Assembly: GCA_002372315.1 (NCBI GenBank)
Contig: DFFU01000026.1
Location: forward strand, 1,230-65,229
From: Alphaproteobacteria bacterium UBA3768
GTDB taxonomy: Bacteria > Pseudomonadota > Alphaproteobacteria > CAAHEQ01 > UBA3637
Direction of reading: 5' to 3'
DNA length: 64,000 bases
Position numbers and translations under genes: made by a program
Part shown: piece by piece, positions 8,307 to 49,687 of the stretch
How the letters are laid out: every line of letters starts with the position of its first letter
Position numbering within the stretch: position 1 is the first letter of the stretch
Notes under the pieces: generated by a model
What the model was told of the DNA's origin: nothing
Database searches by the model: none
The model's input: the letters and a program-made list of their open reading frames with translations, nothing else

Positions 8307-8403
8307 TTTTATTCCTTTTTGTTAAAAAACGTTTAAATTATATCAGATAAGATTAGTAATGTCAAGCAGTTTTTTGTGTGGTATTATAATACCAAATATA
8401 AAT

Positions 8404-9603
8404 CTATTCGTCTTTATTGGTTTTGAAATTGCCAGAGCCGGCATTACAGAAAAGTTTTTTTGTTACTTTATCAAACATACAAGGTTCGCCTGAGTATTGT
8501 GATGATTCAGGCGAAAGAACGGGGATGAAATCACGAATAAGTGTTCCGTTATGATATATTTTACAGTAATACATCTTGCCAACATAGTTTTTTTCCCTTG
8601 GATTTGCTTTAAATAAAAGTATATTAGAAAAAACGGTTTGTTTTGCTCTCAAAGTTCCTGTTGTAGTTACCCCATTTACAGTTAAACTTTTTATTAAAGT
8701 ATCTCCATTTGCTTCAGCACTTATATAAAAGTCGTTTGCACCAGAAAAAGTAGCAGAAGTAGTATTTACATCTGCTGGATTTGGTGCTTCTTTTGTATAA
8801 TTAAAAACATATTTTTGATATAAACCTAAAACATTTCCACCACCATTCAGAATATAATATCCAACTATATCTTGTTCTGCAGTTGGCATATCAGGTGTAT
8901 AAACGTGTGTTTCGTATTTTAAAGTCGTTGAAGTTGGCACATAACCCGTATCAATATACTGTGCTCCAGTGGATTCCAAATATTCCAGTTTTTCGCAGCC
9001 ATCTTGACAGGAGTGCGCTTCAAGATTACAAACCATACATTCATTTTCTTGATTACAATCCTCATTCGTTTCACACGCATGGGTAGGGGTAGCACAAGAC
9101 CCTATACAAATCCCTTGACTTTGACCATCCGCTATTTGACATACCCCACATACATTACAATCTAAATCGCTGTGACAAAATTTTGTGGAAACAGCACCTT
9201 CTAAATTTTTATGAAATGTCCATTCAAATTGATTCGTTACAACACACGTAAAGGGTATAATTTGGCTGGCCAAAGGCATCCCCTTATTTAACAGCTCCTG
9301 ACAAATGGATTGGGGAATATTGGATACAACCAATTTAAAGTAGTCCTGATTGACCTTTTGGGCAGACACAGGATATTTATCATCAATTTTATTGGAAAAA
9401 TCGGATAAAGCACATTCTGTCCGATCCATCATGACCATTTGAGCAGAACACGTATGTGCCATCATATTGATATCGTGTAAAATCGTGTTGGCATCATGGG
9501 AATTGACTATATGGCGATATCCCCATATCCCCACAACAGACAATATACCCACTATAGCCAATGTCCCCAACATCTCTGTTAAACTGCGCCCGCGCTCTGT
9601 CAT
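8404..9603 (-). CDS. prepilin-type (class III signal) N-terminal domain protein with a Cys-rich central region, 399 aa
   Basis: N-terminus MTERGRSLTEMLGTLAIVGILSVVGIWGY has the G/RSLTE processing motif with Glu at +5 and a hydrophobic helix. The central region has about 20 Cys (CNVCGVCQ..., CMVCNLEAHSCQDGC). Strong SD AAAGGAGG upstream. Confidence 0.6.
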   Translation of the reverse strand: MTERGRSLTEMLGTLAIVGILSVVGIWGYRHIVNSHDANTILHDINMMAHTCSAQMVMMDRTECALSDFSNKIDDKYPVSAQKVNQDYFKLVVSNIPQSICQELLNKGMPLASQIIPFTCVVTNQFEWTFHKNLEGAVSTKFCHSDLDCNVCGVCQIADGQSQGICIGSCATPTHACETNEDCNQENECMVCNLEAHSCQDGCEKLEYLESTGAQYIDTGYVPTSTTLKYETHVYTPDMPTAEQDIVGYYILNGGGNVLGLYQKYVFNYTKEAPNPADVNTTSATFSGANDFYISAEANGDTLIKSLTVNGVTTTGTLRAKQTVFSNILLFKANPREKNYVGKMYYCKIYHNGTLIRDFIPVLSPESSQYSGEPCMFDKVTKKLFCNAGSGNFKTNKDE

Positions 9604-9627
9604 GATAACCTCCTTTTAAAAATAAAA

Positions 9628-9662
9628 AATCCACTTTTTTAAAAGTGGACGGACGCTGAAAA
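9628..9662 (-). terminator. Rho-independent terminator on the minus strand immediately upstream of the pilin-like gene RBS
   Basis: Minus strand reads TCCACTTTT AAAA AAGTGGA followed by TTTTTTATTTTT. Confidence 0.5.
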
Positions 9663-9780
9663 ACTGTCATGTCGAGCAGTGCTACTTATTCAATATATTC
9701 AGTAGACCATCCGCCCGCAGGCGGTACTCCGACACGAACGGAATTTCAGTTCCGGCTTATGTGCAATGACATAAGCAGAG
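9640..9780 (-). ncRNA. candidate structured small RNA or riboswitch-like leader (promoter to terminator, about 140 nt)
   Basis: Minus-strand promoter TTGACA (revcomp of 9807-9812), 17 nt, TAAATT (revcomp of 9784-9789). It is followed by a relatively GC-rich segment with several hairpins (GCUUAUGU..ACAUAAGC, CGGAA..UUCCG, CCGCC UGCG GGCGG) and ends at the terminator at 9628-9662. Confidence 0.35.
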
Positions 9781-9880
9781 CCAATTTAAATCATTTTAGA
9801 TAAAATGTCAAATCAAAATTATTAAAAATTTTGTTGCATTATATAAAAAAATAGTTTAAGGTACTGAAAAAGGAGTTATC

Positions 9881-30872: not shown

Positions 30873-31571
30873 TCACCTGTGCGGTTCGTTTTTTTCTGCT
30901 TTTTTCAAGATATAACCACGCCCCCAAACATTTTGAATATAATCTTCATCACCTGTTAGAGCTTTAATTTTTCGACGTATTTTGCATAAAAAAACGTCTA
31001 TTATTTTGCTATCTGGGGGCTCATCCATAATACCATAAAGTTGGTTAATAAAGTTATCTTTGCTAATAGTAGATCCTTGATTAAGTGCCAGTAATTCTAA
31101 TAATGCGTATTCTTTTGCTGTTAAAGGAATTAATTTATCGCCAATAGAGGCTATTTTGGTATTGATGTTGATATTCATTTTTCCAATGCGAATATTAGGA
31201 TCAGAAAAACCACAACTTCGGCGAATAAGCGCTTTAACACGTGCTAATAATTCGATTCGTTCATAGGGTTTTGTTAGATAGTCATCGGCCCCTAAATTTA
31301 AACACTCAGCCTTCTTTTCTGTTTGATTAATAGCTGATAAAATAAGAATAGGTGTATTATTTTTTTGCAGACGAACCTGCTTTAAAACATCTATACCCTT
31401 TATATCTGGTAGCATTAAATCAAGGATGATTAAATCATAGTCATATAATTTAATCAATTCCAAACCATCATGTCCTGTATGGGCAGACTCAGGAATCATT
31501 TGTTCTCTTTTTAACAGTAAGGCGATATTTTGGTTTGCAATCTTATCATCATCTATAATCAGTATATGCAT
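30873..31571 (-). CDS. ctrA: cell-cycle response regulator CtrA (OmpR family)
   Basis: MHILIIDDD with D51 (LDLMLPD), T/K motifs and a winged-helix C-terminus. Strong similarity to Caulobacter CtrA blocks (DYDLIxLDLxLPDxxGIDVL, GADDYxTKP). Confidence 0.85.
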   Translation of the reverse strand: MHILIIDDDKIANQNIALLLKREQMIPESAHTGHDGLELIKLYDYDLIILDLMLPDIKGIDVLKQVRLQKNNTPILILSAINQTEKKAECLNLGADDYLTKPYERIELLARVKALIRRSCGFSDPNIRIGKMNININTKIASIGDKLIPLTAKEYALLELLALNQGSTISKDNFINQLYGIMDEPPDSKIIDVFLCKIRRKIKALTGDEDYIQNVWGRGYILKKAEKNEPHR

Positions 31572-31587: not shown

Positions 31588-31602
31588 TTAACTGTAAATT
31601 AA
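31588..31602. promoter_or_regulatory. CtrA-box-like motif TTAA-N7-TTAA (TTAACTGTAAATTAA)
   Basis: Located 17 nt upstream of the ctrA start, within the divergent region shared with the pilin-like gene at 31674. Confidence 0.4.
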
Positions 31603-31673
31603 GTTTCAAGAAAAATCAATAATTTTTTTTAAATATACTTGACAGTGAAAAATAAAAATGCTAATGAATAACT

Positions 31674-32207
31674 ATGACAATACGAAATTTGAAAAAACAT
31701 TTTATCTGTAATACGGCCGAATCAGGGCGTACTATGGTTGAGTTGATGGCTGTTTTGGCTATCATTGGTGTCCTTTCAGTTGGGGGATTTTGGTTGTTTA
31801 AAACTTCCAATCAAGAACGACAGGTTGATGATATTATTTATCACATGAATATACAGGTAGCACAGATTTATCCTGCATTGGAGCAAAATGGACAATTTTC
31901 TTCCAAAAAAGATTTAGATACCTTTTTGTTATCTTTTAAAAAAGAAGTGGGTGATTACATTTTGACCTTTCAATCCGATCCGAATGCAAGTGGAAACGAT
32001 TTTATGATGCAAGTAACAAAGGCCAATGGAGAACCTATTAAAGGGGGAATGTGTCGTAAGCTTATTTCCAAAATGTCAGAACTAAAAATGGCCCAAGATG
32101 TTTCTTTTTCATTGAAAGATGAAGAAATGGAAGATGGAACTATCCAAGATGTGATGGTACCTTTAAATGAAAGAATTATTGATTACAAATCGGTTTGTGG
32201 AGATTAA
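31674..32207 (+). CDS. prepilin-type N-terminal domain protein (pilin/pseudopilin-like), 177 aa
   Basis: MTIRNLKKHFICNTAESGRTMVELMAVLAIIGVLSVGGFW has G/RTMVE with Glu +5 and a hydrophobic helix, the same unusual Arg +1 as the 8404-9603 protein. Confidence 0.55.
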   Translation: MTIRNLKKHFICNTAESGRTMVELMAVLAIIGVLSVGGFWLFKTSNQERQVDDIIYHMNIQVAQIYPALEQNGQFSSKKDLDTFLLSFKKEVGDYILTFQSDPNASGNDFMMQVTKANGEPIKGGMCRKLISKMSELKMAQDVSFSLKDEEMEDGTIQDVMVPLNERIIDYKSVCGD

Positions 32208-32208
32208 A

Positions 32209-33270
32209 GTGAAAAAAATTTTTATACTTTGTTCTGTTTTGGCTGTTATATCATCGGCCCAAGCTGGCTATCGTATGACTCCGCGTGAAGCCATTTATTA
32301 TTGGGCAAGTCAGGGACATTTAAAAAATTTAAAAGCCTTGCAGAAATCTGGATATTCTTTAGATATGCCTGATTCAAGGGGGTATCAAGCGATTTGTGAA
32401 GCCGTGGAAAGAAAAAATGTTAAAGCTTTTAGAACATTAAAAAAAGCTGGAGCAAAAATGAATGTTTTTTGCCTGTACAATGTTTCTCAAGAACAACGTC
32501 AAGAATTTGAAAAAAGTTACAATGCCTTGTCTCCCGTCATACCAGTGATGACAGAGGATATGCTTAAAGAAGATGGTGCGGAAGCTACAGATGCAAAAAC
32601 TGTATCTCAGGATTTAGGAGTAAAGGTTTCAAATACAGATTTTTTAGACACATCGAACATTACCATTTCGCAGAATGAAAGTTCGGAAAATCTTCACTCA
32701 AAAGATGAGACTGAAAGCATTGTTTTTAAGCCTTATATATCTGCGGGTTTATTTTATGGTACTTCAAAATCAAGTCTAATGGTTTCTGGTCAACAAAAGG
32801 GCAAATATCATGTTTCAGATAAGGTTCCTGGGATGATGCTGGCATTTGGAGCAAAGATTTTTAATTTTAGAACGGAATTGGCATTTCAAGGGCACGCAGA
32901 AGCCACTGATAAAGTGATTGATAATGCAGTTAAAAATCGGTTGCAAACGTATGCTGGTTTTATCAATGCTTTTTATGATATTCCAACGGGCATAGCATTG
33001 ACGCCATATGTTGGTGCTGGTATTGGTATGGCTCATAATAAAACAACACTATCTGATAATGTGATAAAATACAGTAACTCAAATTGGTCTTTTGCGTGGC
33101 AGTTGGCTTTGGGATTAAATTATCCTTTGACAGAAAATTTGATCGCTGATTTAGGATATCGTTATACTGATTATGGACGTGTTAATTTGGTCAATGAAAA
33201 TGGAATCAAGTATAAGAATGATGATATAAGAATGCATAATATAATGCTTGGACTTAGGTATGAAATGTGA
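32209..33270 (+). CDS. outer-membrane beta-barrel protein (OmpA-like / opacity-porin family)
   Basis: GTG start after a GGAGA SD; signal peptide KKIFILCSVLAVISSAQA; alternating amphipathic beta-strands with aromatic girdle residues in the C-terminal 180 aa. Confidence 0.6.
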   Translation: MKKIFILCSVLAVISSAQAGYRMTPREAIYYWASQGHLKNLKALQKSGYSLDMPDSRGYQAICEAVERKNVKAFRTLKKAGAKMNVFCLYNVSQEQRQEFEKSYNALSPVIPVMTEDMLKEDGAEATDAKTVSQDLGVKVSNTDFLDTSNITISQNESSENLHSKDETESIVFKPYISAGLFYGTSKSSLMVSGQQKGKYHVSDKVPGMMLAFGAKIFNFRTELAFQGHAEATDKVIDNAVKNRLQTYAGFINAFYDIPTGIALTPYVGAGIGMAHNKTTLSDNVIKYSNSNWSFAWQLALGLNYPLTENLIADLGYRYTDYGRVNLVNENGIKYKNDDIRMHNIMLGLRYEM

Positions 33271-37081: not shown

Positions 37082-37125
37082 TATTTAAGGAAGAATTAAA
37101 GTACTTATAAATAAATGCAACAAGA

Positions 37126-37201
37126 TGGTGGGTGCGACAGGGATTGAACCTGTGACCCCTACCGTGTGAAGGTAATGCTCTTCCTCTGAGCTAAGCACCC
37201 C
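37126..37201 (-). tRNA. tRNA-Val(CAC)-like gene, variant copy (attL side of island)
   Basis: The 3' 56 nt are identical to the tRNA-Val at 54619-54693. The D-arm differs (GCTTAGCTCAGAGGAAGAGC) and base pair 7-66 is a T.C mismatch. It has its own TTGACT-17-TATAAT promoter (revcomp of 37218-37246). Confidence 0.65.
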
Positions 37202-37647
37202 AAGTTCAACTGAAAGCATTATACAATAAAGGTTTTATAAAGTCAATAGGCAAAAATAGGAAAATTGAAAAATACTTTTTAAACCCTCTAAAATACCCCT
37301 AAATCTGTTTCAACTGTTGAAAAAATGTTGAAAAATGGTTCTGTTGAAAAAATATAAGAAGAGAAAATAAACAGATACCATCTCACATATCTTAAATTAT
37401 CTCACTTTTTCCAACACAAGAAAGGTTTCTGATACCCCCCTTTCTTGTGTATTTTTATGGGTTATGGCATCTTTCCCCCCACAAATTAACTGAAAGGGAA
37501 AGTATGACTAACAAGAAAGATTATCTCACATTTTCCAACATAATCTCAAATCCTCTAAAAAGCAGGATGAAATGTATGGTTGCCAAATATCTAAATAACA
37601 AGTTTTTCCATATACTTTCCAAGCATTTTAACTGAAAGGATTTTACA

Positions 37648-38943
37648 ATGGCAACAAAATTAAATCAAGTAATCACACTAAATCAAAAAGCAGTGGAAAA
37701 CTTACCAGTTCCACAAGAAAAGAGTGTCATATACTATGACACCAAAGAAGAGAAATTGTATCTCTTGGTAAGTAAAACAGGAACAAAAACATTTTACCTG
37801 TTATCAAGAGTGAAAAGCAGAGTGGCAAGAATTAAAATTGGCAGATTTCCTGACATTAAAGTTGAAAAGGCAAGAGAAATTGCCCAACAATTAAAAAGTT
37901 CTATTGCCACAGGTAATGACCCAGAGAAGAACAAACTTGCTCTTAAAGGGGATATTACCTTCAAGGAACTTTTTGATATGTATATTGAAAAGTATGCCAA
38001 AGACAACCTAAAATCTTGGAAGATTGGGCAGTATGTAATCAACAAACATTGCCAAAAGTTCTTCAACAGAAAATTGACAACCATAACCAACAAGGAACTC
38101 AAAGAGTTCATTGAGGAAGTGGCAACCAACAGCACTGATACTGCCAACACATTGCTGAAAAAACTGAAAGGCATTTTTAACAAAGGCATTGAATGGGAAA
38201 TCTACAAGGGGGACAACCCTGTCAATAACATCAAATCATACAAAGAAAACAGAAGAGATAGGTTCTTACAACCTATTGAACTGGGTGATTTCTTTGATGT
38301 CTTAAAGGATGAACCAGAGGATTTGAGGGATATTGTCATCCTTGGATTAAACACAGCAGCAAGAAAAAGCAATATTCTGTCTATGGAATGGAATGAACTG
38401 GACCTTGCTAACAATCTTTGGAGAATACCTGCCCATAAATCCAAAAATGGTGATGTAATGATTATTCCATTGTTGGATGAGGCAAAGAATGTTTTATTAA
38501 AAAGGAAAAGTGAAGATTTCCAAAGAAAATATCATTGTCATACAAGACAAGGAGAGAAACTAAAAAATCTTTTTGCCACTTATGTTTTCCCTTCTGTTAG
38601 GAATAAAGAAGGACACTTAATGGGATTTAGAAGGTTATGGGATGCTTTCAGAAAGCACTTTTTTGAGAAGTGTAAGTTATCAAAAGGTGATTTGGTTTTC
38701 CATGATTTAAGAAGAACTCTTGCTTCATTTGAAGCACTGACTGGGCAATATTCTTTACAGATTATTGGAAAATCATTAGGGCATAAATCTACTGCTTCAA
38801 CAGAAATCTATGCCAGATTACTAACAGAACCAGTTAGAGCATCCATGAATGCTGCCACAGATTTGATGAAAAAACAGATGGATTTTCCAACATTATCTCA
38901 AAAGGTAGAAGATTATCCAAGGTTATCCAAGAACAATGAGTAA
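37648..38943 (+). CDS. int: tyrosine-type site-specific integrase (phage integrase family)
   Basis: C-terminal catalytic box HDLRRTLASFEAL...GHKSTASTEIYARL (R, H-x-x-R, Y). N-terminal SAM-like/arm-binding domain. Adjacent to the tRNA-derived att site. Confidence 0.9.
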   Translation: MATKLNQVITLNQKAVENLPVPQEKSVIYYDTKEEKLYLLVSKTGTKTFYLLSRVKSRVARIKIGRFPDIKVEKAREIAQQLKSSIATGNDPEKNKLALKGDITFKELFDMYIEKYAKDNLKSWKIGQYVINKHCQKFFNRKLTTITNKELKEFIEEVATNSTDTANTLLKKLKGIFNKGIEWEIYKGDNPVNNIKSYKENRRDRFLQPIELGDFFDVLKDEPEDLRDIVILGLNTAARKSNILSMEWNELDLANNLWRIPAHKSKNGDVMIIPLLDEAKNVLLKRKSEDFQRKYHCHTRQGEKLKNLFATYVFPSVRNKEGHLMGFRRLWDAFRKHFFEKCKLSKGDLVFHDLRRTLASFEALTGQYSLQIIGKSLGHKSTASTEIYARLLTEPVRASMNAATDLMKKQMDFPTLSQKVEDYPRLSKNNE

Positions 38944-39013
38944 AAATGCTTATGGGTCAATGACTTATTTGAAGAAATGAAATAAGATATTTGACATAGA
39001 AAGGAGTAGAAAA

Positions 39014-39199
39014 ATGACTAAATTACTTACACCAGAAGAAACAGCAGAACTACTGAATGTTTCAATCAAATTACTCAATGATTGGAGATACAATCAGAAG
39101 GTAAATCTCCCCTATGTCAAAATTGGGAAATTGGTGAGATACAAATTGTCTGATGTTGAACAATTCATACAAGGATGTTGTGTTCAAATGAGTTTTTAA
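39014..39199 (+). CDS. AlpA-family phage/island transcriptional regulator or excisionase (HTH)
   Basis: 61 aa, LLTPEETAELLNVSIKLLNDWRYNQKVNLPYVKIGKLVRYKLSDVEQFI, the classic AlpA/Xis pattern. Confidence 0.65.
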   Translation: MTKLLTPEETAELLNVSIKLLNDWRYNQKVNLPYVKIGKLVRYKLSDVEQFIQGCCVQMSF

Positions 39200-39328
39200 G
39201 AAATGCCACTTAAAAGGTGGTTGCCAGAGAACTGGCAAAAAATCAAGGCAGGTGTCTTGTAGTTGTAAATGGAAGGAGCAACTTAAAAGAAGTCCAACCA
39301 AAGAAAGTATAACTGAAAGGTTTTTAAT

Positions 39329-40126
39329 ATGAAAAAGAATAACAAATATAAAAAACAAATGAGAAGAAAAAAAACAAATGCTGAAAAGAAGTTAGCACAT
39401 ACTAACTGCTTAAATCAGAAGGAAAATCTTACTTCAAGTATTGAGGAAGGAGAACAAGGTGGAAAAATACGTGTTTGTCATAGTATGATTCCTGCCTGGG
39501 GCACATCTGAAGATGAACAACTTGCCAAAGAAGTATTCCTTTTTTCAGAAGTATTTGACATGTTCCAATCTGACAAAATGGTGAATTTTGTAATTATGAA
39601 AATTACTTTTTTGGGTAAGGATGATGATATTAGTGATGCTATTGAAAAATTAAAAAGTTTTTCATCAACTCTCTCACCAAGTTTTTCTATAAGTGAAAAA
39701 GCTGTTGCTGATGGAGTATTCTTTGGTGGTTTTAATAAGCAAAGTAAGAGAGAGCACATTAGGTTAAGTAATGATGAATTATCTATTCAAATGGATGAAA
39801 CATTTGATGTTGGGGAATTATTTGGACTTAATCTAAATCAAGTTGAAAAGGTTTGTTTCACACTTCCAAAAGATTGCTCTAAAAAATTAAAAAAACAAAC
39901 TCACTTATTGAGGTCTTGTCTTTTGGGAATGATGTATGATAATGAGTTTAATATTTCAGAAATCTCTATTTCTTGTGAAAATCAAGCAGTTCTTATTGAC
40001 ATGATGAAAATGGAGAAAAAATTACCTTTCCCTCTACTGACTGAATTAAGCAAAGATTATGATGGGAAAATCATTGCTACAATCTCTAAAACATTTGGTT
40101 TAGGTGCTTTTAAGAAAGCAGCATAA
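39329..40126 (+). CDS. hypothetical protein (island cargo)
   Basis: 265 aa, preceded by the AACTGAAAGG motif. No recognisable domain. Confidence 0.4.
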   Translation: MKKNNKYKKQMRRKKTNAEKKLAHTNCLNQKENLTSSIEEGEQGGKIRVCHSMIPAWGTSEDEQLAKEVFLFSEVFDMFQSDKMVNFVIMKITFLGKDDDISDAIEKLKSFSSTLSPSFSISEKAVADGVFFGGFNKQSKREHIRLSNDELSIQMDETFDVGELFGLNLNQVEKVCFTLPKDCSKKLKKQTHLLRSCLLGMMYDNEFNISEISISCENQAVLIDMMKMEKKLPFPLLTELSKDYDGKIIATISKTFGLGAFKKAA

Positions 40127-40203
40127 ATCCAAAAAGTTGTATGTGGTTGGAGCAACTTAAAAGAAGTCCAACCAAGTAAATCTTACAGAAAAGGAGTAAA
40201 AAT

Positions 40204-40503
40204 ATGTGTAAGACAGCAAAAACCTTTGAAGGAGGGTTAAATCCTTCAAATAACAATGTTTCAACTTCAAAAGAAGAAAGAAACAAGACCCAAAAGTGGT
40301 TGGAAAATTGGATAAACAACTCATCTGCTTCCAATGATGAAAAATCAAAGGTCAAGCAATGGTTGGAAGATTGGGTTAAAGATACACCAACTGCTAATGA
40401 AAGTAAATCCAAAACAAAGGAATGGTTGGAAAAATGGTGCTCCAATAACAACCAAAATCCAACAAAACAATTCCTTGAATGTTGGATAAAGGATTGTGCC
40501 TAA
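40204..40503 (+). CDS. small tandem-repeat protein (about 4 x 21-aa K-x-K-x-WLE-x-W units)
   Basis: KTQKWLENWINN / KVKQWLEDWVKD / KTKEWLEKWCSN / TKQFLECWIKDCA. Confidence 0.4.
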   Translation: MCKTAKTFEGGLNPSNNNVSTSKEERNKTQKWLENWINNSSASNDEKSKVKQWLEDWVKDTPTANESKSKTKEWLEKWCSNNNQNPTKQFLECWIKDCA

Positions 40504-40606
40504 AATTAGGCAGATACTGCCTATGCTATATGTGTAGGCAGTATCCTTTCTAAAAATTACATTTTTTAATCATAAATACATTTGTAGTGAAAAAGGAGAA
40601 AATAAT

Positions 40607-41185
40607 ATGACAGATTTAACAATTACTCAAAGACATATTTTAGAATTTATTAGGTTCAAAACAAATAAGGGTTTTCCCTTTTATGGAAGTAATGAGTATG
40701 TTGCCAATGCTTTGGAAATAAAGGAAAGTTCAGCAAAAGTTCTTATCAACAAACTAATCAAGGATAATTATTTAATAAAATCCAGTGATATTAAGCATAA
40801 AAGAATTTTATCTTTATCTGGTAAGGAATATCCAAGAATGCCTTGGGTAAATATGTCAGATGTCAATAAATGGGAAATTCAAAAGAAAAGAGATGAATAC
40901 CTCAAAGAATATGAAACTGCTGATAAATGGGGTTATAAACTTCAAGCAGAAAATGATATTCTTCAAAAAAGATGTGGTGATTTACAAAGGAACTATGATG
41001 AGTTAAAAAAGGTATATGATGGGTTATCTAAACAATTACAAGAAACCTTTGTTCCTCAATATCAAGCAATGGCACAAAGAGTTAAAGGTTTGGAAAAATT
41101 ACTAAAAGAGCAATATGGTCTTACAGATAAGCAAATAAGTGTTATGTTAAAACCAGTAAGTATTCCTATTGGAGAATATTGTTGA
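40607..41185 (+). CDS. hypothetical protein with N-terminal winged-helix-like domain and C-terminal coiled coil
   Basis: ITQRHILEFIRFKTNKGFPFYGSNEYVANALEIKESSAKVLINKLIKDNYL, then heptad-rich sequence. Confidence 0.4.
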   Translation: MTDLTITQRHILEFIRFKTNKGFPFYGSNEYVANALEIKESSAKVLINKLIKDNYLIKSSDIKHKRILSLSGKEYPRMPWVNMSDVNKWEIQKKRDEYLKEYETADKWGYKLQAENDILQKRCGDLQRNYDELKKVYDGLSKQLQETFVPQYQAMAQRVKGLEKLLKEQYGLTDKQISVMLKPVSIPIGEYC

Positions 41186-41633
41186 GAGTTTTTAACTCCA
41201 TATTCTTACAATATTCATCTTTGGCAATATACATAAAGTCCCAACCTAATAATTTTCTCTGTTTCTTATCTTCTGTTGAGTAAAAATCTTTGTATTGGTT
41301 CAATAATTCTTTTATTTCTGCTTTTAATTCATCACTTGCTTCATCATTGTCATCAACATAGGTATAGCAAGAGCATCCATTAACATCCAAATAATTGGGG
41401 TCTCCACCTAATTCAAGCAGATATTTAACACTATCTGCTTTTAATGTAAATTGGCAACATAGTTGAAGTAAAGAAGACAAGTTCATAGTAATGGGTTCAT
41501 TTATGTATTCTATGGTGCTTATAATCTCATCCATCTTTTTAGGATTACTCATAACATCTACCATATTCTTATATCTAATTTCTACATTTAAGTTGGCAGT
41601 TTTATTATTACCTAATATTTTAATTAAAAACAT
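41166..41633 (-). CDS. hypothetical protein with one ankyrin-like repeat
   Basis: LLQLCCQFTLKADSVKYLLELGGDPNYLDVNGCSCYTYV. Confidence 0.3.
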   Translation of the reverse strand: MFLIKILGNNKTANLNVEIRYKNMVDVMSNPKKMDEIISTIEYINEPITMNLSSLLQLCCQFTLKADSVKYLLELGGDPNYLDVNGCSCYTYVDDNDEASDELKAEIKELLNQYKDFYSTEDKKQRKLLGWDFMYIAKDEYCKNMELKTLNNILQ

Positions 41634-41712
41634 TTCAAACCTCTTTTCTATATCATAAATATTTATTAGTTTTAGGTTAAACTATGTAATTTTTTAACCT
41701 TTTAATACAGGT

Positions 41713-41857
41713 GGAAATGACTATTGCCACTTTTTTTGTAGAGGAAATGACTATTGCCACCATTCTTTGATATAGGAATCAGTATTACTCTCATTGAGAA
41801 TGAATGTTTCAATTATTGAAAATGAGTATTACCATTAGAGGAAATGAATATTGCCAC
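41713..41857. repeat. iteron-like array: 3 good plus 3 degenerate copies of an 18-bp repeat GGAAATGA(C/A)TATTGCCAC at 21-33 bp spacing
   Basis: Copies at 41713-41730, 41743-41760 and 41840-41857 are identical or differ at one position. Degenerate copies lie at 41776-41790, 41797-41815 and 41818-41836. Confidence 0.5.
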
Positions 41858-42313
41858 CCCATTTTGGGATATGCCTTATTTTATAAGGGGTTTGATGGTG
41901 TTTTTTCTTCCTATAATAGTATTATAATAGAATTAAAAAAGAACTATTATAATAGTTCTTTTTCTTCTTTTTGTATAATAGCAAACTTGTTTAATGGGGA
42001 ATAATAGAGGTAGTTAAATAAAGGGAGATTAAATAACCCAAATTAAACAAGCAAATAAGTTAGTCCAATTAAAAAGGAAAATAATATGGGGATATTAAAC
42101 AAGGGAAAATAATATAGGGGCATTAGTCAGGTAAAATAATGAAACTGGAATAATGGAAACTGGGTGATGTGGGGTTGTTCTGCTGGGGTAGTTTTTTTGT
42201 GAGGGGACACCTCTAAATGAGATAAATAGTTATGAGTAATTTTGAACTCTTTTTTCATTACAAACCCCACCATTTCTGGTGGGGATTTTTATGAAAAATA
42301 ATTAAAATATTTT

Positions 42314-42345
42314 TGACTTTCTATGGGTAAATATGGTATAATATA
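42314..42345 (+). promoter_or_regulatory. sigma70-like promoter TTGACT-18-TATAAT upstream of the restriction gene region
   Basis: tttgactttctatgggtaaatatggtataat. Confidence 0.4.
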
Positions 42346-42351
42346 AATACA

Positions 42352-42465
42352 ATAAAAGAGAAATAAAACATCATCTTTTTTTGTTTTATCTAATATAATT
42401 TTCATTGTCATAAAACCAAGTTAATTGTTTTACCTGCCAGTAAAATGGCAGGTTTTTAGTATTTT
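42352..42465 (+). ncRNA. candidate short transcript or leader (about 110 nt) ending in a Rho-independent terminator (CCTGCCA gtaaaa TGGCAGG + U-run at 42431-42465)
   Basis: A promoter immediately upstream and an intrinsic terminator about 105 nt before the restriction-gene ATG at 42573. A second hairpin+T-run (CCCCACC atttct GGTGGGG) at 42266-42295. Confidence 0.3.
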
Positions 42466-42572
42466 TTTATATGAGATGTCAAAATCTGCCATCCTAAAAA
42501 CTTTTTAGTTTGCTTTTTTTATCATAATAGTTTAACATATCCCAATGATTAAATCAACACAAGGGAGTTGTT

Positions 42573-45500
42573 ATGACCAAACCAATAGTTTCATTTAATG
42601 ATGTTTTATCCAAGTTTAGAGCAGAAGCATTCTCTGAAAGGGATAAAGGGTTCAGATTTGAAAAACTGATGAAGAAATATCTTCAAATTGAACCTCAATA
42701 CAAAAACATCTTAAAGACAGTGTGGTTATGGAATGAGTTTCCATTTAGAAATGATTTTAGTGGAAAAGATACAGGAATTGACTTGGTTGCTCAAACAGTT
42801 GAAGGAGATTACTGGGCAATTCAATGTAAATGTTTCAGAGAGGATGCTTATATTGACAAATCAGGTGTTGATAGTTTCTTATCCACATCCAGTAAAAGTT
42901 TCATGGGAGAAGATGGTAAAAGCAAACAATTTACCCAAAGATTATGGATTTCTACAACAAATCATTGGAATAGTGAAGCAGAAGAAACCATTAAAAACCA
43001 AAATCCCCCACTTCACAGGATTAGTTTAACAGATTTACAAAACACATCTGATTACATTGACTGGGATGAATTGGTCAATGGTATGGAAACAAGTGCCTTA
43101 AAAGAGAAAAAACATCCCAGAGACCACCAAATCCAAGCAATCAACAACTTCCATGAACATTTTAAAAATGCTGATAGAGGTAAGTTGATTATGGCATGTG
43201 GGACAGGTAAGACCTATACATCCTTAAAGATTGCTGAAAATGAAACTGATGGGAAAGGAACAATCCTGTTTTTAGTGCCATCTATTGCTTTATTGGGTCA
43301 AACTTTAAGAGAATGGAGTGCCCAAGCAGAAAAACCCATTTATCCTATCTGTATCTGTTCTGATGCTACTGTTGGACAGGATGAAGATGATGATATAAGT
43401 GTAGTTGATTTAGCATTACCTGCCAGCACAAATGTGAGAAGCATTGTCAATCAGTTTGAAGTTGCTAAAAAGAACCAGAAGGGAATGATAGTTGTATTCT
43501 CAACTTACCAATCCATAGATGTTATTTCCAAAGCACAAGCAGAATTAAATAAAAGACAGAAGGATAACTGTATCTTTGACTTGATTATCTGTGATGAAGC
43601 ACACAGAACCACTGGAATTATCTTAAAGGATAAAGAAAAAGGTGGTTATGATGAAAAATCCTTTACCAAAGTCCATGACAATAAATGGGTTGAAGCAAAG
43701 AAAAGATTGTATATGACAGCAACTCCAAGATTGTATAAGGAAGATGCCAAGAAAAAAGCAGAAGAAGGTGATGCTATACTTTGTTCAATGGATGATGAAG
43801 CAATTTATGGACAAGAAGTTTATAGAATTGGATTTGGTGAAGCAGTTGATAAGAGGTTGTTATCAGATTACAAGGTCTTGGTTTTAACATTAAAAGAAGA
43901 ACAAATCCCAGCAGCATTTAGAAGTATCATCAACTCTGGTAAGAAAGATAAAGAAATTACCACAGATGATGTCAGTAAGTTGATTGGATGTATAAATGCT
44001 CTGTCTAAAAGGGTTATAGAAGCAGATAAAGAGTTCAATGATGATAGAGCACCCATGAGGAAAGCAGTTGCTTTCTGCCAAAGCATTAAAGCATCCAAAA
44101 TGATTACTGGGATGTTTAATGAGCATAAAGATACCTATTACAATTCTCTCCCACAGGAAGAAAGAGAAAAGTTGGTGGGTGTAGAAGCAAAGCATATAGA
44201 TGGAACAATGGGAGCAAGTCAAAGAGATGAATTATTGACTTGGTTAAAAGATACCCCAGAAGATGGTAAAGAATGCCATATTTTAACCAATGTGAAGTGT
44301 TTGTCAGAAGGTGTTGATGTGCCATCACTGGATGCTGTGATGTTCTTGGCAGCAAGAAACAGTCAGGTTGATGTGGTCCAATCTGTTGGAAGAGTTATGA
44401 GAACAGCACCTGATAAGAAGTATGGATACATCATTATTCCTGTAATGATACCAGAAGGAATTAAACCAGAAGAAGCATTGGAGGATAACAAAAGATATGC
44501 TGTTATTTGGACAGTATTGAATGCTTTAAGAGCACATGATGACAGATTTGATGCTGAAATCAACAAAATCAACTTGAATAAGAAGAAAGGTGATAGAATA
44601 AAAGTCATTGGTGTTGGTAATGGTGAAGATGATGGGGATGGTAGTGGAAAACCAACCAGTAGAGACACCCAATTAGAAAGACAATTGACTTTACCATTAG
44701 CAGAATTACAAGAATTACAAAATGTGATTTATGCCAAAATGGTTCAAAAGGTTGGCAGTAAGAGATATTGGGTTCAATGGGCACAAGATGTTGCCAAGAT
44801 TGCTCAAAGATATATTGTTAAAATCAACCATCTAATTGAAACAGATACTAAATCACAAGAAGTATTCAATAAGTTCTTAAAAGGTTTAAGAAAGAACATC
44901 AACCCATCTGTATCCAAAGATGAAGCAATCCAAATGTTGGCACAGCATTTGATTACCCAACCTGTGTTTGAAGCATTGTTTGAAAATTATTCATTTGTAT
45001 CCAACAACCCTGTATCTAAATCCTTACAAAAGATGGTGGATTTATTGGAAAAGCAAGCAATGGATGAAGAAGGTGAGAAGACCCTTCATAAGTTCTATGA
45101 ATCTGTTAAAGAGAGAGTTAAAGGGATTGACAATGCTGATGGCAGACAGAAGATTATTATTGAACTGTATGATAAGTTCTTCAAAACTGCTTTCCCAAAG
45201 GTTGTGGAACAGTTGGGAATTGTCTATACACCAATAGAAGTAGTTGATTTTATAAACAATTCTGTTGCCCAAGTATTGAAAAAAGAGTTTAACAGGAACT
45301 TGTCTGATGAAAATATTCATATCCTTGACCCATTTACAGGGACAGGAACATTTATTACGAGGTTGATTCAAACTGGTTTAATTGATAAGGAAGCATTACC
45401 AAGAAAGTATGCCAAAGAACTTCATGCCAATGAGATTGTGCTGTTGGCATATTACATTGCTTCAATCAATATTGAAAATGCTTACCATGATGCTGTGGGT

Positions 45501-47465
45501 ATGGAAAATGGTTATAAGTCATTTGATGGTATTTGTTTGACAGATACCTTCCAATTGGGGGAAACAGATGAAGCAACCAACCTGTTTGATGAAATGCTCC
45601 CACAAAACTCTGAAAGAGTGATGGAACAAAAGAAATTACCTGTCAGGGTAATCATTGGGAATCCACCTTATTCCATTGGTCAGAAGTCAGCAAATGATAA
45701 TGCCCAAAACCAATCTTATCCAAAATTGGATAGAAGAGTTGAAGAAACTTATGCTAAATATTCCAATGCTGCTTTGAACAAAGGATTATATGATAGTTAT
45801 ATCAAAGCATTCAGGTGGTCATCTGATAGAATTGATGAAAAGAATGGAGGTATAATTGCCTTTGTATCAAATGGTAGTTGGATTGATGGGCAATCTATGG
45901 ATGGTTTAAGAAAAGCATTTGAAAAAGAGTTTAATTCCATATATGTCTTTAATATGAGAGGAAATACCAGAACAAGTGGAGAAACAGCAAGAAAAGAAGG
46001 GGGACAAACATTTGGAAGTGGATGTAGAACAACTGTTGCTATCACAATCTTGGTTAAAAATCCAAAAGTTGAAACAGAAAAAGCAACCATCTATTATACA
46101 CAAGTTCCTGATTATCAAAGTAGAGAGGACAAATTAGCATTATTAGCACACTATAAGGATATTACCAATAGTAGGATACAATTTAAGGTCCTAAAACCCA
46201 ATGAACATGGGGATTGGTTAAATCAAAGAAGTGATTTATTCAGTTCCTTCATACCCGTTGAACCTGATAAAAAGTTCAATCTTAAATCAACAAGTATGTT
46301 TAATTTAAATGTTATTGGAGTAGCAACTAATAGAGATGCCTGGGTGTATAATTATTCACAAAGAAATTTGGAAAGTAATGTGAGAAAAATGGTTGATTTT
46401 TATAATGAACAAAGAAAAGGGTATCAAACAGCATTACAAAAAAACAACTTGTTGAAAGTTGAGGATTTTATTGATATAGACCCAAAGAAAATTAGTTGGA
46501 CAAGAAGTTTAAGAAATCAAGTTAAAAATAACAAAGAAAATACATATCAGTCAGATGTTTATTATGAAGGTTGTTACAGACCATATTGTAAGCAACATTT
46601 GTATTATGAAAACTCATTTATTGAAAGTCCTGGTTTAAGTAAGCAATTATTCCCAACATCACAGCATAAAAATATGTGTATTGCTGTATCTGGCATTGGT
46701 GCTGGAAAAGATTTCTCAACTTTAATTGTAAATCAAGTTCCTTGCTTGGATATGGTTGAGAAAGGTCAATGCTTTCCACTCTATTACTATGAAAAGAATG
46801 AAGGGAATATTGGAACATTGTTTGATGATGGGAAAGACCAATATATCAGAAGAGATGGTATAACTGACTTTATCTTGGAACAATGTAGAACTAGATATGG
46901 ACATAAAGTATCCAAAGAGGATATCTTCTATTATGTCTATGGATTATTACATTCCAATGATTACAGAACCCAATTTGCTGCTGATTTGAAGAAAATGTTA
47001 CCCAGAATACCATTAGTGGATATTCCAAATGATTTCTTTGAGTTTAGTAAGGCAGGAAGACAATTGGCAGAACTTCATTTGAACTATGAAACTGTGCCTG
47101 CTTATCCAGATGTAGAGGTTATTGGTGAAGAAAAAGGAAACTTCCATGTGGATAAGATAACATTTGCCAAAAAGGATGGTGAAGTTGATAAAACAACCTT
47201 GATTTACAATTCTTCCATCAAAATTACCAATATCCCATTAGAAGCATATGACTATGTTGTCAATGGAAAGTCAGCAATAGAATGGATTATGGACAGATAC
47301 CAAGTCAAAGTTGATAAGGATAGTGGTATCAAAAATGACCCAAATGACTGGGGATTAGAACATAATAATCCCAGATACATCTTGGATCTGATTTTATCAG
47401 TTATAACAGTCAGTATGGCAACCAATGAAATAGTTAAAAAATTACCAAAGTTGGATTTGAAATAA
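42573..47465 (+). CDS. Type ISP-like single-polypeptide restriction-modification enzyme: Mrr-type PD-(D/E)xK nuclease + SF2 DEAH helicase-like motor + gamma-class N6-adenine methyltransferase + C-terminal target-recognition region (1630 aa)
   Basis: aa 60-90 GIDLVAQ...YWAIQCKCF (Mrr catalytic core). Walker A ACGTGKT (aa about 208), DEAH box LIICDEAHRT (aa about 341), motif VI QSVGRVMR (aa about 603). MTase motif I DPFTGTGTF (aa about 919) and motif IV NPPY (aa about 1030). GGIIAFVSNGSW and YVFNMRGN blocks typical of Eco57I/LlaGI-like MTases. AGA/AGG-rich island codon usage. Confidence 0.8.
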   Translation: MTKPIVSFNDVLSKFRAEAFSERDKGFRFEKLMKKYLQIEPQYKNILKTVWLWNEFPFRNDFSGKDTGIDLVAQTVEGDYWAIQCKCFREDAYIDKSGVDSFLSTSSKSFMGEDGKSKQFTQRLWISTTNHWNSEAEETIKNQNPPLHRISLTDLQNTSDYIDWDELVNGMETSALKEKKHPRDHQIQAINNFHEHFKNADRGKLIMACGTGKTYTSLKIAENETDGKGTILFLVPSIALLGQTLREWSAQAEKPIYPICICSDATVGQDEDDDISVVDLALPASTNVRSIVNQFEVAKKNQKGMIVVFSTYQSIDVISKAQAELNKRQKDNCIFDLIICDEAHRTTGIILKDKEKGGYDEKSFTKVHDNKWVEAKKRLYMTATPRLYKEDAKKKAEEGDAILCSMDDEAIYGQEVYRIGFGEAVDKRLLSDYKVLVLTLKEEQIPAAFRSIINSGKKDKEITTDDVSKLIGCINALSKRVIEADKEFNDDRAPMRKAVAFCQSIKASKMITGMFNEHKDTYYNSLPQEEREKLVGVEAKHIDGTMGASQRDELLTWLKDTPEDGKECHILTNVKCLSEGVDVPSLDAVMFLAARNSQVDVVQSVGRVMRTAPDKKYGYIIIPVMIPEGIKPEEALEDNKRYAVIWTVLNALRAHDDRFDAEINKINLNKKKGDRIKVIGVGNGEDDGDGSGKPTSRDTQLERQLTLPLAELQELQNVIYAKMVQKVGSKRYWVQWAQDVAKIAQRYIVKINHLIETDTKSQEVFNKFLKGLRKNINPSVSKDEAIQMLAQHLITQPVFEALFENYSFVSNNPVSKSLQKMVDLLEKQAMDEEGEKTLHKFYESVKERVKGIDNADGRQKIIIELYDKFFKTAFPKVVEQLGIVYTPIEVVDFINNSVAQVLKKEFNRNLSDENIHILDPFTGTGTFITRLIQTGLIDKEALPRKYAKELHANEIVLLAYYIASINIENAYHDAVGMENGYKSFDGICLTDTFQLGETDEATNLFDEMLPQNSERVMEQKKLPVRVIIGNPPYSIGQKSANDNAQNQSYPKLDRRVEETYAKYSNAALNKGLYDSYIKAFRWSSDRIDEKNGGIIAFVSNGSWIDGQSMDGLRKAFEKEFNSIYVFNMRGNTRTSGETARKEGGQTFGSGCRTTVAITILVKNPKVETEKATIYYTQVPDYQSREDKLALLAHYKDITNSRIQFKVLKPNEHGDWLNQRSDLFSSFIPVEPDKKFNLKSTSMFNLNVIGVATNRDAWVYNYSQRNLESNVRKMVDFYNEQRKGYQTALQKNNLLKVEDFIDIDPKKISWTRSLRNQVKNNKENTYQSDVYYEGCYRPYCKQHLYYENSFIESPGLSKQLFPTSQHKNMCIAVSGIGAGKDFSTLIVNQVPCLDMVEKGQCFPLYYYEKNEGNIGTLFDDGKDQYIRRDGITDFILEQCRTRYGHKVSKEDIFYYVYGLLHSNDYRTQFAADLKKMLPRIPLVDIPNDFFEFSKAGRQLAELHLNYETVPAYPDVEVIGEEKGNFHVDKITFAKKDGEVDKTTLIYNSSIKITNIPLEAYDYVVNGKSAIEWIMDRYQVKVDKDSGIKNDPNDWGLEHNNPRYILDLILSVITVSMATNEIVKKLPKLDLK

Positions 47466-48862
47466 TGGATATAAATGACTTTCTAACAGATTTACTTAAA
47501 AAAGATTTCAAAAAGAAATCTAAAGGAAAGTCAGCATCCAGTGCCATCAACGCCATTAAAACTGTATCAAGTCCTATGGAAGATAAGGATTATAAGTTAG
47601 ATAAGGCACAAGAAGAACTGTTTGACTTGATTGAAAACACCCATACAAATGTATTCATTCAAGGTCAGGCAGGAACAGGAAAATCAACTTTTATCAACCA
47701 CTTAAAGAAATATTCTGATAAAAGGATCAGAATTGTCTGTCCAACAGCAGTTGCTGCCATCAATGTTGGTGGAACAACCATACATTCTTTATTCAAATTA
47801 CCATTCTCTGATTTTTTTATCTTTGATGATCTATTAAAAGAAAAAAGACAGAAACTTAAATCCATCTTGAATAAGACAGATTTACTCATAATTGATGAAG
47901 TTTCTATGGTTAGACCAGATATGTTGGATATTATAGACCTGCTATCCAGACAAGCAAAAGGTAAGGATGAACCATTTGGTGGATTACAGATGCTTCTGAT
48001 AGGTGATTTATGCCAATTACCGCCAGTAATTAAATCCAATGCTTACCATATCTTTAAGGAAGCATATGGACATAGAAATCCATATTTCTTTGATGCCAAC
48101 TCTTATAAAGCAGGAAACTTTGAAAAAATTGAACTGACAAAGGTTTATAGACAATCTGACAAAGAATTATTGAAAAATCTTATCAGGGTTAGGGAAAACA
48201 AAGAGGTTGATGAAGCAGTTGAATACTTTAATACCTGTAAGATTGATGATGAAGATGTCCTCAATACTGCTATGACTATCACTCCTTATAAACAAGTAGC
48301 AGAAAACATCAACCAAAAGAGATTGGGAGAATTAGAAACTCCTGTTCATACTTATGTTTGCCAAACCAAAGGAACATTTGATGAAGCAAAGGAATGTCCT
48401 TCTCCCAGAGTTTTAACATTAAAAGAAGGTGCTTTGGTTATCTTTAATAAGAATAACCCACCGTCTTGGATAAATGGAACAAGTGGAATTATTGAGAAAT
48501 TGGAAGATGATGCTATTACTGTAAAGGTCTTAAAAACTGGTGAAAGTGTTGCTGTTAAAAGAGAAGAATGGAAAAGTTATCAGTATGATTATGACAGAGA
48601 AACAGGAACTGTTGTTGAAAAAGAAGTTGGGACATTTATTCAATTCCCATTACAACTGGGATATGCTCTGACTATTCATAAAGCACAAGGTAAAACTTTG
48701 GATAAAGTTGTAATAGACCTGAATAGAGGAGCATTTGCTCATGGTCAATTATATGTTGCTTTAAGTAGAACCAGAAAGAAAGCAGATATTCATTTAACTA
48801 AAAGAATTGATGTATCTGATATTATTATGGATGATAGAATTGTTGAGTTTATGGGGAAATAA
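47465..48862 (+). CDS. PIF1/RecD-like SF1B DNA helicase
   Basis: Walker A GQAGTGKST, Walker B LLIIDEVSMV, the PIF1 signature PFGGLQMLLIGDLCQLPPV, and C-terminal LTIHKAQGKTLDKVVIDL. The start codon overlaps the upstream stop (ATAATGG). Confidence 0.8.
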   Translation: MDINDFLTDLLKKDFKKKSKGKSASSAINAIKTVSSPMEDKDYKLDKAQEELFDLIENTHTNVFIQGQAGTGKSTFINHLKKYSDKRIRIVCPTAVAAINVGGTTIHSLFKLPFSDFFIFDDLLKEKRQKLKSILNKTDLLIIDEVSMVRPDMLDIIDLLSRQAKGKDEPFGGLQMLLIGDLCQLPPVIKSNAYHIFKEAYGHRNPYFFDANSYKAGNFEKIELTKVYRQSDKELLKNLIRVRENKEVDEAVEYFNTCKIDDEDVLNTAMTITPYKQVAENINQKRLGELETPVHTYVCQTKGTFDEAKECPSPRVLTLKEGALVIFNKNNPPSWINGTSGIIEKLEDDAITVKVLKTGESVAVKREEWKSYQYDYDRETGTVVEKEVGTFIQFPLQLGYALTIHKAQGKTLDKVVIDLNRGAFAHGQLYVALSRTRKKADIHLTKRIDVSDIIMDDRIVEFMGK

Positions 48863-48863
48863 G

Positions 48864-49676: not shown

Positions 49677-49687
49677 AGGAGAATAAT

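Follow-up and report, generated by a model that had tools for sequence, protein, structure and literature searches.

The 64,000-nt stretch of DNA analysed here (the window; positions 1,230 to 65,229 of contig DFFU01000026.1 from Alphaproteobacteria bacterium UBA3768, G+C content 34.9%) contains two genes, for proteins of 399 and 177 residues, whose N-termini resemble those of type IV prepilins, with arginine in place of the usual first residue of the mature protein. In our reading, to which we give a probability of roughly 70%, both are type IV pilin-like proteins, the 399-residue protein is a modular pilin that bears a lectin-type head and whose gene lies behind an RNA switch, and a type IVb machine of the lineage assembles them.

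Both open reading frames (ORFs), at 8404-9603 on the minus strand for the 399-residue protein and at 31674-32207 on the plus strand for the 177-residue protein, are real. The 399-residue protein begins MTERGRSLTEMLGTLAIVGILSVVGIWGY, with a leader peptide, MTERG (9589-9603, minus strand), that ends in Gly(-1) and is preceded by a strong ribosome-binding site (RBS; AAAGGAGG), followed by the mature part RSLTEMLGTLAIVGILS. The N-terminal part of the 177-residue protein, ...NTAESGRTMVELMAVLAIIGVLSVGGFWLF, includes an 18-residue leader peptide, MTIRNLKKHFICNTAESG (31674-31727, plus strand), ending ...AESG, for which a cut is expected after the final Gly; the mature part, RTMVELMAVLAIIGVLS, would start R-T-M-V-E. 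If cleaved after Gly, both proteins would carry R(+1)-S/T(+2)-x-x-E(+5) ahead of a hydrophobic helix (RSLTEMLGTLAIVGILSVVGIWGY in the 399-residue and RTMVELMAVLAIIGVLSVGGFWLF in the 177-residue protein, each with Glu+5), as in a class III signal, in which some 20-25 mainly hydrophobic residues follow the cut. The leaders of both are short, hydrophilic and end in Gly; the hydrophobic +1 residue of type IV pilins (Phe, Met or similar, usually N-methylated) is replaced by Arg in both. A degenerate DNA pattern written for the G|R-S/T-x-x-E N-terminus matched the window at two places, which are these two genes, with 0.00 matches expected. The preliminary description of this DNA had proposed a class III signal with Arg at +1 in both proteins, and this was borne out by the sequence, by the exact DNA-pattern matches and by the homologues described below. 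For the 177-residue protein, the NCBIfam model TIGR02532 scored 21.5, above its cutoff of 16.3, while Pfam N_methyl scored 17.3, below its cutoff of 21.2; neither window protein matched the Pfam head models Bundlin (PF05307) or PilS (PF08805). When profiles of both homologue families were compared with PDB sequences, nearly all of the matches, which were weak (E 0.01-2), were to type IV pilins, in the register Gly over Gly, Arg over Phe1 and Glu over Glu5.

Searches gave 227 homologues of the 399-residue protein at E ≤ 1e-3 and 20 of the 177-residue protein, which belongs to a small family; for both, the sources were uncultured Alphaproteobacteria from gut and rumen. G(-1)/R(+1)/E(+5) was found in 55 of the 56 homologues that reach the N-terminus, the remaining one having G-H, and within the 177-residue family 19 homologues are G|R and one is G|H. 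A phmmer search of 1.84 billion cluster representatives with the first 60 residues as query, in which Arg was not demanded, returned at least 2,222 representatives at E ≤ 1e-3 (clusters at 50% identity). Among the best 150 of these matches were 146 new sequences with the N-terminal motif, and they had G-R in 145 cases and Ser at +2 in 143. We also scanned one genome per species with the DNA pattern for the G|R N-terminus and matched at least 120 sequence tiles. Among the matches listed, 118 of 120 tiles came from metagenome-assembled genomes (MAGs) of gut or rumen Alphaproteobacteria (Proteobacteria bacterium CAG:495, 'Candidatus Enterousia', UBA, RGIG and SIG bins, and a few otherwise named), and the other two were chance matches in ybeY of Nitrospiraceae. 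All class III-like N-termini in ~1.1 Mb of DNA from the lineage had Arg, and the G|F type was not seen. The proteins range from ~150-260 residues up to more than 1,600 residues with 112 Cys, and Glu5 is kept strictly in all members, the large ones included. Judged by sequence, Arg at +1 is a signature of the family and is confined to MAGs of gut and rumen Alphaproteobacteria. Both window proteins belong to this large and apparently undescribed Arg+1 branch of type IV pilin-like proteins; a literature search for such pilins in gut Alphaproteobacteria turned up nothing relevant.

The 399-residue protein has three parts. The first, a pilin module (residues 6-140; 9184-9588, minus strand), was delimited from the AlphaFold2 model, hhalign and the PDB profile matches, and consists of the hydrophobic N-terminal part of the first helix (α1N), a long α1 helix (5-59) and a β-sheet head with conserved Cys101 and Cys120. 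A Cys-rich linker with 12 Cys follows (residues 141-205; 8989-9183, minus strand), its Cys columns conserved in the alignment of homologues, and then a β-sandwich of LamG/ConA/pentraxin type (residues 206-399; 8407-8988, minus strand), recognized by Foldseek and by the sharing of the domain with other proteins. The AlphaFold2 model, built with 33 homologues, has a mean predicted local distance difference test (pLDDT) score of 73 and places helix 5-59 against a β-sheet (77-131; pLDDT 66-84), followed by the Cys-rich stretch and the β-sandwich, which reaches pLDDT 87-95 at its conserved edges. With the sandwich as query, Foldseek retrieved LamG, neurexin LNS, pentraxin (CRP) and sialidase lectin domains from the PDB, with E values of 2e-4 to 1e-3 and template-modelling (TM) scores of ~0.5. 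The N-terminal domain aligned by hhalign to the Bundlin/PilS-type pilins of the lineage with a probability of 99.8% over 117 columns, and without the first 30 residues the probability was 87.7% (E 3e-6), via a strand-Cys-helix motif. The protein contains 19 Cys in all, 12 of them in a 61-residue block (residues 143-203), so the earlier count of about 20 Cys in a block of roughly 60 residues was wrong. The predicted structure and the Foldseek matches show a pilin module, a linker and an independently folding domain, the build of a modular pilin, and we best read the protein, on this model, as a modular (minor) pilin with an adhesin-type head. The preliminary suggestion of a minor pilin or tip adhesin gains support from the modelled α1 helix and β-sheet followed by a LamG-like sandwich, and from the hhalign comparison.

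The head varies between near-identical copies of the pilin module. A second copy, P0002, lies on another contig of the same assembly with similar coverage (ERZ12302850, NODE_173; locus L138, 10001-11203), between rpmJ/groESL and recR, and shares 94% identity with the window protein over the N-terminal 206 residues and 44% in the head. In another copy, P0003, the N-terminal part is 91% and the head 33% identical. The edges of the head are conserved (EYLESTGxQYIDTG or EYLESTGTQYIDTG ... LIRDFIPV or LVRDFIPV ... CMFDKVxKKLFCNxGxG) and its core is hypervariable. The organism appears to hold several copies of one pilin stalk with different heads, and the presence of at least two copies with a near-identical pilin module and different heads implies that head specificity is under diversification. 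We rejected head switching by a shufflon or by cassettes, as the locus has no suitable inverted or direct repeats and no recombinase, and the variants are separate copies. Other proteins carry the head domain with no pilin module; among them, a very common 444-residue protein has it twice, and a 595-residue phage tail-fiber-like protein, whose gene immediately precedes a phage lysozyme gene on a contig of phage-like character, has three tandem copies. PHROGs and Pfam searches assigned no family to the 399-residue protein or to the other carriers of the domain. A phage origin of the 444-residue relative was rejected, its gene having mutS2 and minD as neighbors and neither pilus nor phage genes nearby; the N-terminus of this relative looks putatively PilX-like. 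Two tandem-domain proteins on a 3,295-bp Logan contig (P0054 and P0058) contain segments that share 59-70% identity with the window head where it varies most. This is a closer match than the head of P0002 gives, a hint that different protein architectures exchange head segments. Downstream of the 399-residue gene, rplM follows after 97 nt; a perfect TTGACA-17-TATAAT promoter lies just past the stop codon (8365-8337, minus strand), and a TTAA-N7-TTAA sequence (8322-8336) lies directly upstream of the rplM start.

Upstream of the 399-residue gene we found a structured 5´ leader RNA of ~160 nt (9626-9783, minus strand), identified by folding, covariation and covariance-model matches, which goes beyond what the preliminary description had observed. 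A sigma-70-like promoter (TTGACA-17-TAAATT; 9783-9811, minus strand), conserved upstream of P0002, is followed by a G+C-rich stretch, a terminator-like hairpin with a T run, and the RBS; the intrinsic terminator hairpin occupies 9629-9650 and, with its T run, directly precedes the RBS. The minimum free energy of the 182-nt leader is -60.3 kcal/mol, as against -42.3 ± 4.1 for shuffled sequences (z -4.44). The leader of P0002 is like it, 84% identical, with six compensatory changes in predicted pairs. The architecture of the window leader is a three-way-junction core closed by a long-range helix, together with a 5´ hairpin, an alternative hairpin and the terminator. A covariance model of the 91-position core, searched in the ~1.1 Mb of lineage DNA, gave 23 matches at E < 1e-3; 20 of these are placed 36-288 nt upstream of a family gene's Gly-Arg codons on the same strand, and one more precedes a variant family gene overlooked by the motif regular expression, making 21 of 23. 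The leader is present in ~15% of family genes (32% of the large and 11% of the small ones). In the alignment of the 23 sequences, 96.5% of cells are paired, compared with 19-50% when the partners are slid, and 11 of the 15 pairs show changes on both sides. One strong match (L046, 5565-5656) has no family gene after it; it is followed by a G+C-rich hairpin region and then by a gene whose product has an ordinary Sec signal peptide.

The conserved long-range closing helix (GGNNGGAWG / CWUCCNNCC) and the terminator's 5´ arm overlap, the extent being about four pairs. In addition, the segment just 5´ of the closing helix's 5´ strand has the sequence of its 3´ strand and covaries, which allows an alternative hairpin. 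For the six bases directly 5´ of the helix's 3´ strand, 20 of 23 sequences contain an exact Watson-Crick partner upstream, with 2.5 expected; 13 distinct 6-mers are represented, and in those sequences that were inspected by eye the partner is usually in the loop of a 5´ hairpin. This exact 6-mer test was used in place of a 'longest helix' statistic, which was dropped as uninformative because G-U pairs in AT-rich sequence raise the background. Covariation, a terminator exclusive with a conserved helix, and placement in cis before one class of gene are all seen, as in an attenuating leader. The layout is that of a transcription attenuator or ON-type riboswitch, in which the closing helix and the loop pairing would exclude the terminator.

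The same RNA might instead be an independent trans-acting small RNA (sRNA) of sRNA-Xcc1 type that has a promoter and a terminator to itself, and not a cis-acting switch. A promoter and a terminator do stand on either side of it, and two members, L025 (36.0 bits) and L086 (33.8 bits), match the Rfam family RF02221 (sRNA-Xcc1), described as trans-acting (PMC2996969), from end to end, although below the gathering score of 53; the window copy has no Rfam match at E ≤ 10. We consider this unlikely, as 21 of the 23 matches are upstream of a G|R-S gene on the same strand, the terminator shares sequence with the covarying closing helix's 3´ strand, and the alternative hairpin also covaries, which is the layout of an attenuator.

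Candidate assembly machinery was found in relatives. With E. coli GspE and HofB as tblastn queries, ATPase genes were detected in eight tiles, adjoining small G|R-S genes. The surrounding cluster, which we described from Pfam annotation of the fetched loci and from precomputed Pfam annotation of two longer contigs (L135, of CAG:495 type, and L139, from rumen), is syntenic in CAG:495-type and rumen relatives. It encodes a 521-572-residue protein of no assigned family, TcpQ, Secretin, PAP_PilO, a 446-478-residue coiled-coil protein, T2SSE (560 residues, JGI name bfpD), T2SSF and a pilin-like protein without a cleavage motif. A second T2SSE of ~330 residues is present in L135 and several tiles, and none was called in L139. 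The cluster also includes a pilin of 215-223 residues with a G|R-S N-terminus that scores 59.9 bits with PilS and 50.9 bits with Bundlin. Set beside the published component list of type IVb pili (PMC10191384), its gene content is that of a type IVb-like pilus cluster, with paralogues bearing the G|R-S N-terminus alongside. Small genes matching the TrbC/VirB2 pilin model lie divergently upstream of the cluster (L135, 1613-2786; L139, 2501-2854), as does, in both contigs, a gene whose product exceeds 1,000 residues; our first RNA model had a weak match (E 0.023) upstream of one of these genes.

On the reading we favor, the two prepilins would enter the inner membrane through the hydrophobic α1N helix, and a putative prepilin peptidase would trim the short leader after Gly. 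The type IVb machine of the lineage (TcpQ, secretin, PilO, the BfpD-like ATPase, the platform protein, the Bundlin/PilS-type major pilin and the second ATPase) would then build the mature proteins into a filament. The 399-residue protein would consist there of its pilin module, a disulfide-rich stalk and the LamG/ConA-like lectin-type head, which probably places a domain for ligand or glycan binding at the pilus or along it. Transcription of its gene would be gated by the leader RNA, the long-range closing helix competing there with the intrinsic terminator. The 177-residue protein would be a probable minor pilin encoded beside ctrA, the two genes having a conserved CtrA-type box between them. 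Of this reading, the sequence features, the homology, the machinery of the lineage, the fold of the head and the structure of the RNA are results of the analysis, from which cleavage, incorporation into a pilus, binding of a ligand and the trigger of the RNA switch are inferred.

Several observations weigh against this reading. The 399-residue protein scores 13.2 with TIGR02532, below the cutoff of 16.3, and matched no Pfam family, and the head of the 177-residue protein, compared by hhalign with the pilin heads of the lineage, gave a probability below 4%, with α1 the only part in common. To our knowledge no characterized pilin has Arg at +1, and the charged side chain would face the hydrophobic core of the filament. 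Members of more than 1,600 residues with more than 100 Cys are hard to square with passage through a secretin in a filament. The type IVb cluster was seen in relatives only and not in the 64-kb window, where neither tblastn with E. coli Gsp/Hof and lineage cluster proteins nor Pfam annotation found a pilus gene; the preliminary description had said as much of the window, and of the pilus or type II secretion system (T2SS) loci that it proposed to look for, the type IVb-like cluster was found in the relatives and none in the window. No Peptidase_A24 gene is present in the window or within 10 kb of the cluster in two relatives. A tblastn search with E. coli GspO and a scan for ORFs with GxGDxK likewise found no peptidase in the window or the ~1.1 Mb of lineage DNA, a sample that is a small part of any one genome, so that this negative result is not evidence of absence.

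On another reading, the N-terminus would be a pilin-derived handle and the type IVb-like machine would serve secretion or surface display, as a T2SS pseudopilus piston or in TCP-dependent export, the hundreds of G|R proteins then being membrane-anchored or exported cargo and not filament subunits. The family is huge and heterogeneous (150 to >1,600 residues, up to 112 Cys), its genes are scattered among housekeeping genes outside the pilus cluster, and the very large Cys-rich ectodomains resemble surface proteins. However, the members that adjoin the cluster are bona fide Bundlin/PilS-type pilins, the strict retention of Glu5 in all members fits the docking of subunits into a filament, and there is precedent for adhesive domains grafted onto modular pilins (PMC9934059, PMC10191384). 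We regard the handle as a rather improbable explanation.

The 177-residue protein is probably a small pilin-like subunit, a minor pilin, and is read as pilin-like because of its N-terminus alone. Two Cys, at positions 127 and 175, are conserved in the family. Its AlphaFold2 model shows a long α1 helix followed by β-strands at low confidence (pLDDT 65), and a fold search of the PDB with this model gave nothing significant, the model being too weak for the search to be informative. The gene is divergent from that of a ctrA-like response regulator (30873-31571, minus strand), for which the NCBIfam CtrA equivalog was the top match by far (1.1e-84, 283.7 bits, below its cutoff of 350). Close relatives of the 177-residue protein (63-74% identity) keep this place divergent from ctrA, and those at 34-39% identity are encoded elsewhere, between queH and rpsA. 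A promoter-like sequence (TTGACA-17-TAATGA; 31639-31667, plus strand) stops 6 nt short of the ATG and so suggests that the 5´ untranslated region is very short or missing. The next gene (32167-33270, plus strand) overlaps the end of the 177-residue gene, in a neighborhood conserved in relatives, and its product combines an ankyrin-repeat N-terminal part with an outer-membrane β-barrel (OMP_b-brl, Opacity, Rickettsia Adr-like).

The preliminary description had noted a CtrA box shared between this gene and ctrA. A TTAA-N7-TTAA sequence matching the CtrA-box consensus (TTAACTGTAAATTAA) is present in the intergenic region at 31588-31602, 17 nt from the ctrA start codon, 72 nt from the 177-residue ATG and ~45 nt upstream of its -35 element. 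In a relative with ~80% nucleotide identity, both TTAA half-sites and the TTGACA are kept and the spacer differs (L004, L006). Such sequences occur eight times in the window, with 8.07 expected, so the presence of one is not significant by itself. Among 126 upstream regions of family genes there are 16 full boxes, about twice the 8.0 ± 3.0 obtained with a first-order Markov model, and 3 of 500 simulations reached 16. As the box is nearer to ctrA than to the 177-residue gene, it may serve ctrA autoregulation. The box itself therefore stands, with conservation in one relative, but at chance frequency, and its link to the pilin-like gene is only suggestive. Large Cys-rich proteins of 597-1,128 residues with a weak TNFR_ELAPOR1 match are encoded in three loci (L004, 7418-9211; L005, 6641-8599; L138, 3934-7320), and in relatives one such gene sits between a MerR gene and ctrA, a slot that is empty in the window; L138 contains no G|R-S motif besides that of the P0002 gene.

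These data also bear on whether the 177-residue protein could be the major pilin, activated by CtrA, of a pilus under cell-cycle control, as with pilA in Caulobacter. The divergent arrangement with a conserved box between the genes, the roughly twofold enrichment of boxes upstream of family genes, and the leader of 18 residues, a length typical of type IVb major pilins, would all fit. We nevertheless think it quite unlikely: ctrA autoregulation explains the position of the box equally, the number of boxes in the window is at chance, the pilins of the cluster are a different, Bundlin/PilS-type paralogue of 200-220 residues, and the family is small (20 matches), with distant members not beside ctrA. 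Finally, it is highly improbable that both N-termini are ordinary uncleaved Sec signal-anchors with a purely compositional likeness to class III signals, for although the 399-residue protein falls under the TIGR02532 cutoff and the window and ~1.1 Mb of lineage DNA yielded no prepilin peptidase, Gly-1, Arg+1 and Glu+5 are invariant over thousands of proteins, the pilin matches are in register, and paralogues with Bundlin/PilS heads adjoin the type IVb machinery.

We tentatively extend the pilin reading further, in a combined form that we hold to be possible, with the odds against it. Here the leader would be a new ON riboswitch, a pseudoknotted three-way-junction aptamer distantly akin to sRNA-Xcc1, in which a ligand-stabilized closing helix blocks the terminator; it would govern a large, head-swapping repertoire of pilus-borne adhesins in gut Alphaproteobacteria. 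Arg+1 would reflect a distinct chemistry of maturation or assembly: the leader might be removed by a non-canonical peptidase dedicated to it, or a salt bridge between Arg1 and Glu5 might stand in for the one that Glu5 otherwise forms with the N-terminal amine. In type IV filaments, the amine of the first residue pairs with Glu5 of a neighboring subunit in the hydrophobic core. If this combined reading were true, sRNA-Xcc1-type RNAs would generally be cis-regulatory and not trans-acting sRNAs, and either form of the Arg+1 chemistry would define a new subclass of type IV filaments.

The thousands of Arg+1 pilin-like proteins offer a natural test of the role of the +1 residue in cleavage, methylation, membrane extraction and packing. 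The bacteria that encode them are common and uncultured in human and animal guts, and their attachment is little understood. A repertoire of lectin-headed modular pilins, with heads common to phage receptor-binding proteins, provides a hypothesis for host, glycan or cell-cell recognition, and the leader would add a class of regulatory RNA tied to pilus adhesins, which may alter the reading of sRNA-Xcc1.

Two other regions of the window stand out. An ORF of at least 2,637 codons (56088-64000, plus strand) runs off the window end; its product has 3 Cys only and a signal-peptide-like N-terminus (…FILNVFGILWTMPTYAADD), and is probably a very large surface or secreted protein. The ORF-poor appearance of 56-64 kb had made ribosomal RNA a candidate there, which was rejected, as none is present and the stretch is this one giant ORF. 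An integrated mobile element at ~37100-56000, with tRNA genes at its flanks, a phage-type integrase and two resolvases, carries a 1,630-residue Type ISP restriction-modification enzyme (42573-47465), a PIF1-like helicase, a GIY-YIG protein and a pentapeptide-repeat protein.

Among known systems, the closest characterized analogue of the 399-residue protein is PilC of Streptococcus sanguinis, a modular pilin whose ConA-like lectin module binds glycans of the host (PMC9934059). PilC (and also PilB) and the 399-residue protein are alike in having a class III signal, a short pilin module, a linker and a grafted β-sandwich of the ConA/LamG superfamily, and by analogy with modular pilins the expected role would be that of a tip or shaft adhesin. 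PilC differs in belonging to a type IVa system of a monoderm with Phe-type processing, whereas the 399-residue protein has a type IVb-like context, Arg at +1 and a disulfide-rich linker. Unlike that of PilC, its predicted lectin-type head is without a Pfam model and is common to phage tail-fiber-like proteins.

Type IVb pili, such as the toxin-coregulated pilus (TCP), the bundle-forming pilus (BFP), colonization factor antigen III (CFA/III) and the R64 thin pilus, resemble the cluster of the relatives in their set of TcpQ, secretin, PilO, BfpD-like ATPase, platform and Bundlin/PilS proteins. The +1 residue varies among type IVb pilins (Met, Leu, Ser, Trp). Their minor pilins include TcpB, CofB, which has a lectin domain, and PilV of R64, which has variable C-terminal ends. 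They differ from the lineage cluster in encoding a peptidase (TcpJ, BfpP, PilU) within their own clusters, and R64 PilV is varied by a shufflon, with invertible C-terminal segments between repeats and an Rci recombinase, whereas the 399-residue locus has no shufflon, silent cassettes or recombinase and its variants are separate gene copies. Also unlike type IVb systems, the Arg+1 family runs to thousands of clusters at 50% identity, with genes that lie dispersed. With the CtrA-activated pilA of Caulobacter (Tad/Flp), the 177-residue gene has in common an alphaproteobacterial pilin-like gene with TTAA-N7-TTAA upstream, here beside ctrA itself. Caulobacter pilA is of type IVc/Flp, whereas the context of the 177-residue gene is type IVb-like, with the box nearer to ctrA and a putative site by its sequence.

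For the leader, sRNA-Xcc1 is described as acting in trans and as belonging to integron cassettes and mobile elements (PMC2996969), and one copy of it has been placed upstream of a phage gene (bioRxiv 10.1101/2020.03.17.996009). It resembles the L025 and L086 leaders in having a closing helix round two hairpins with AAUA-rich loops. The similarity stays below the gathering score, and the window copy and most others have no match; in addition, the core described here is part of a longer leader, which adds a pseudoknot-type helix, an alternative hairpin and a terminator, and it lies in cis before G|R-S genes. Control of a pilin gene by a riboswitch has precedent in pilA1 of Clostridioides difficile, which is preceded by a cyclic di-GMP (c-di-GMP) riboswitch (PMC6200980, PMC6366702). 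Although the leader is unlike the GEMM-I and GEMM-II c-di-GMP models, with no Rfam match, the C. difficile pilA1 and 399-residue leaders are alike in being structured RNAs with a terminator before a type IV pilin or pilin-like gene.

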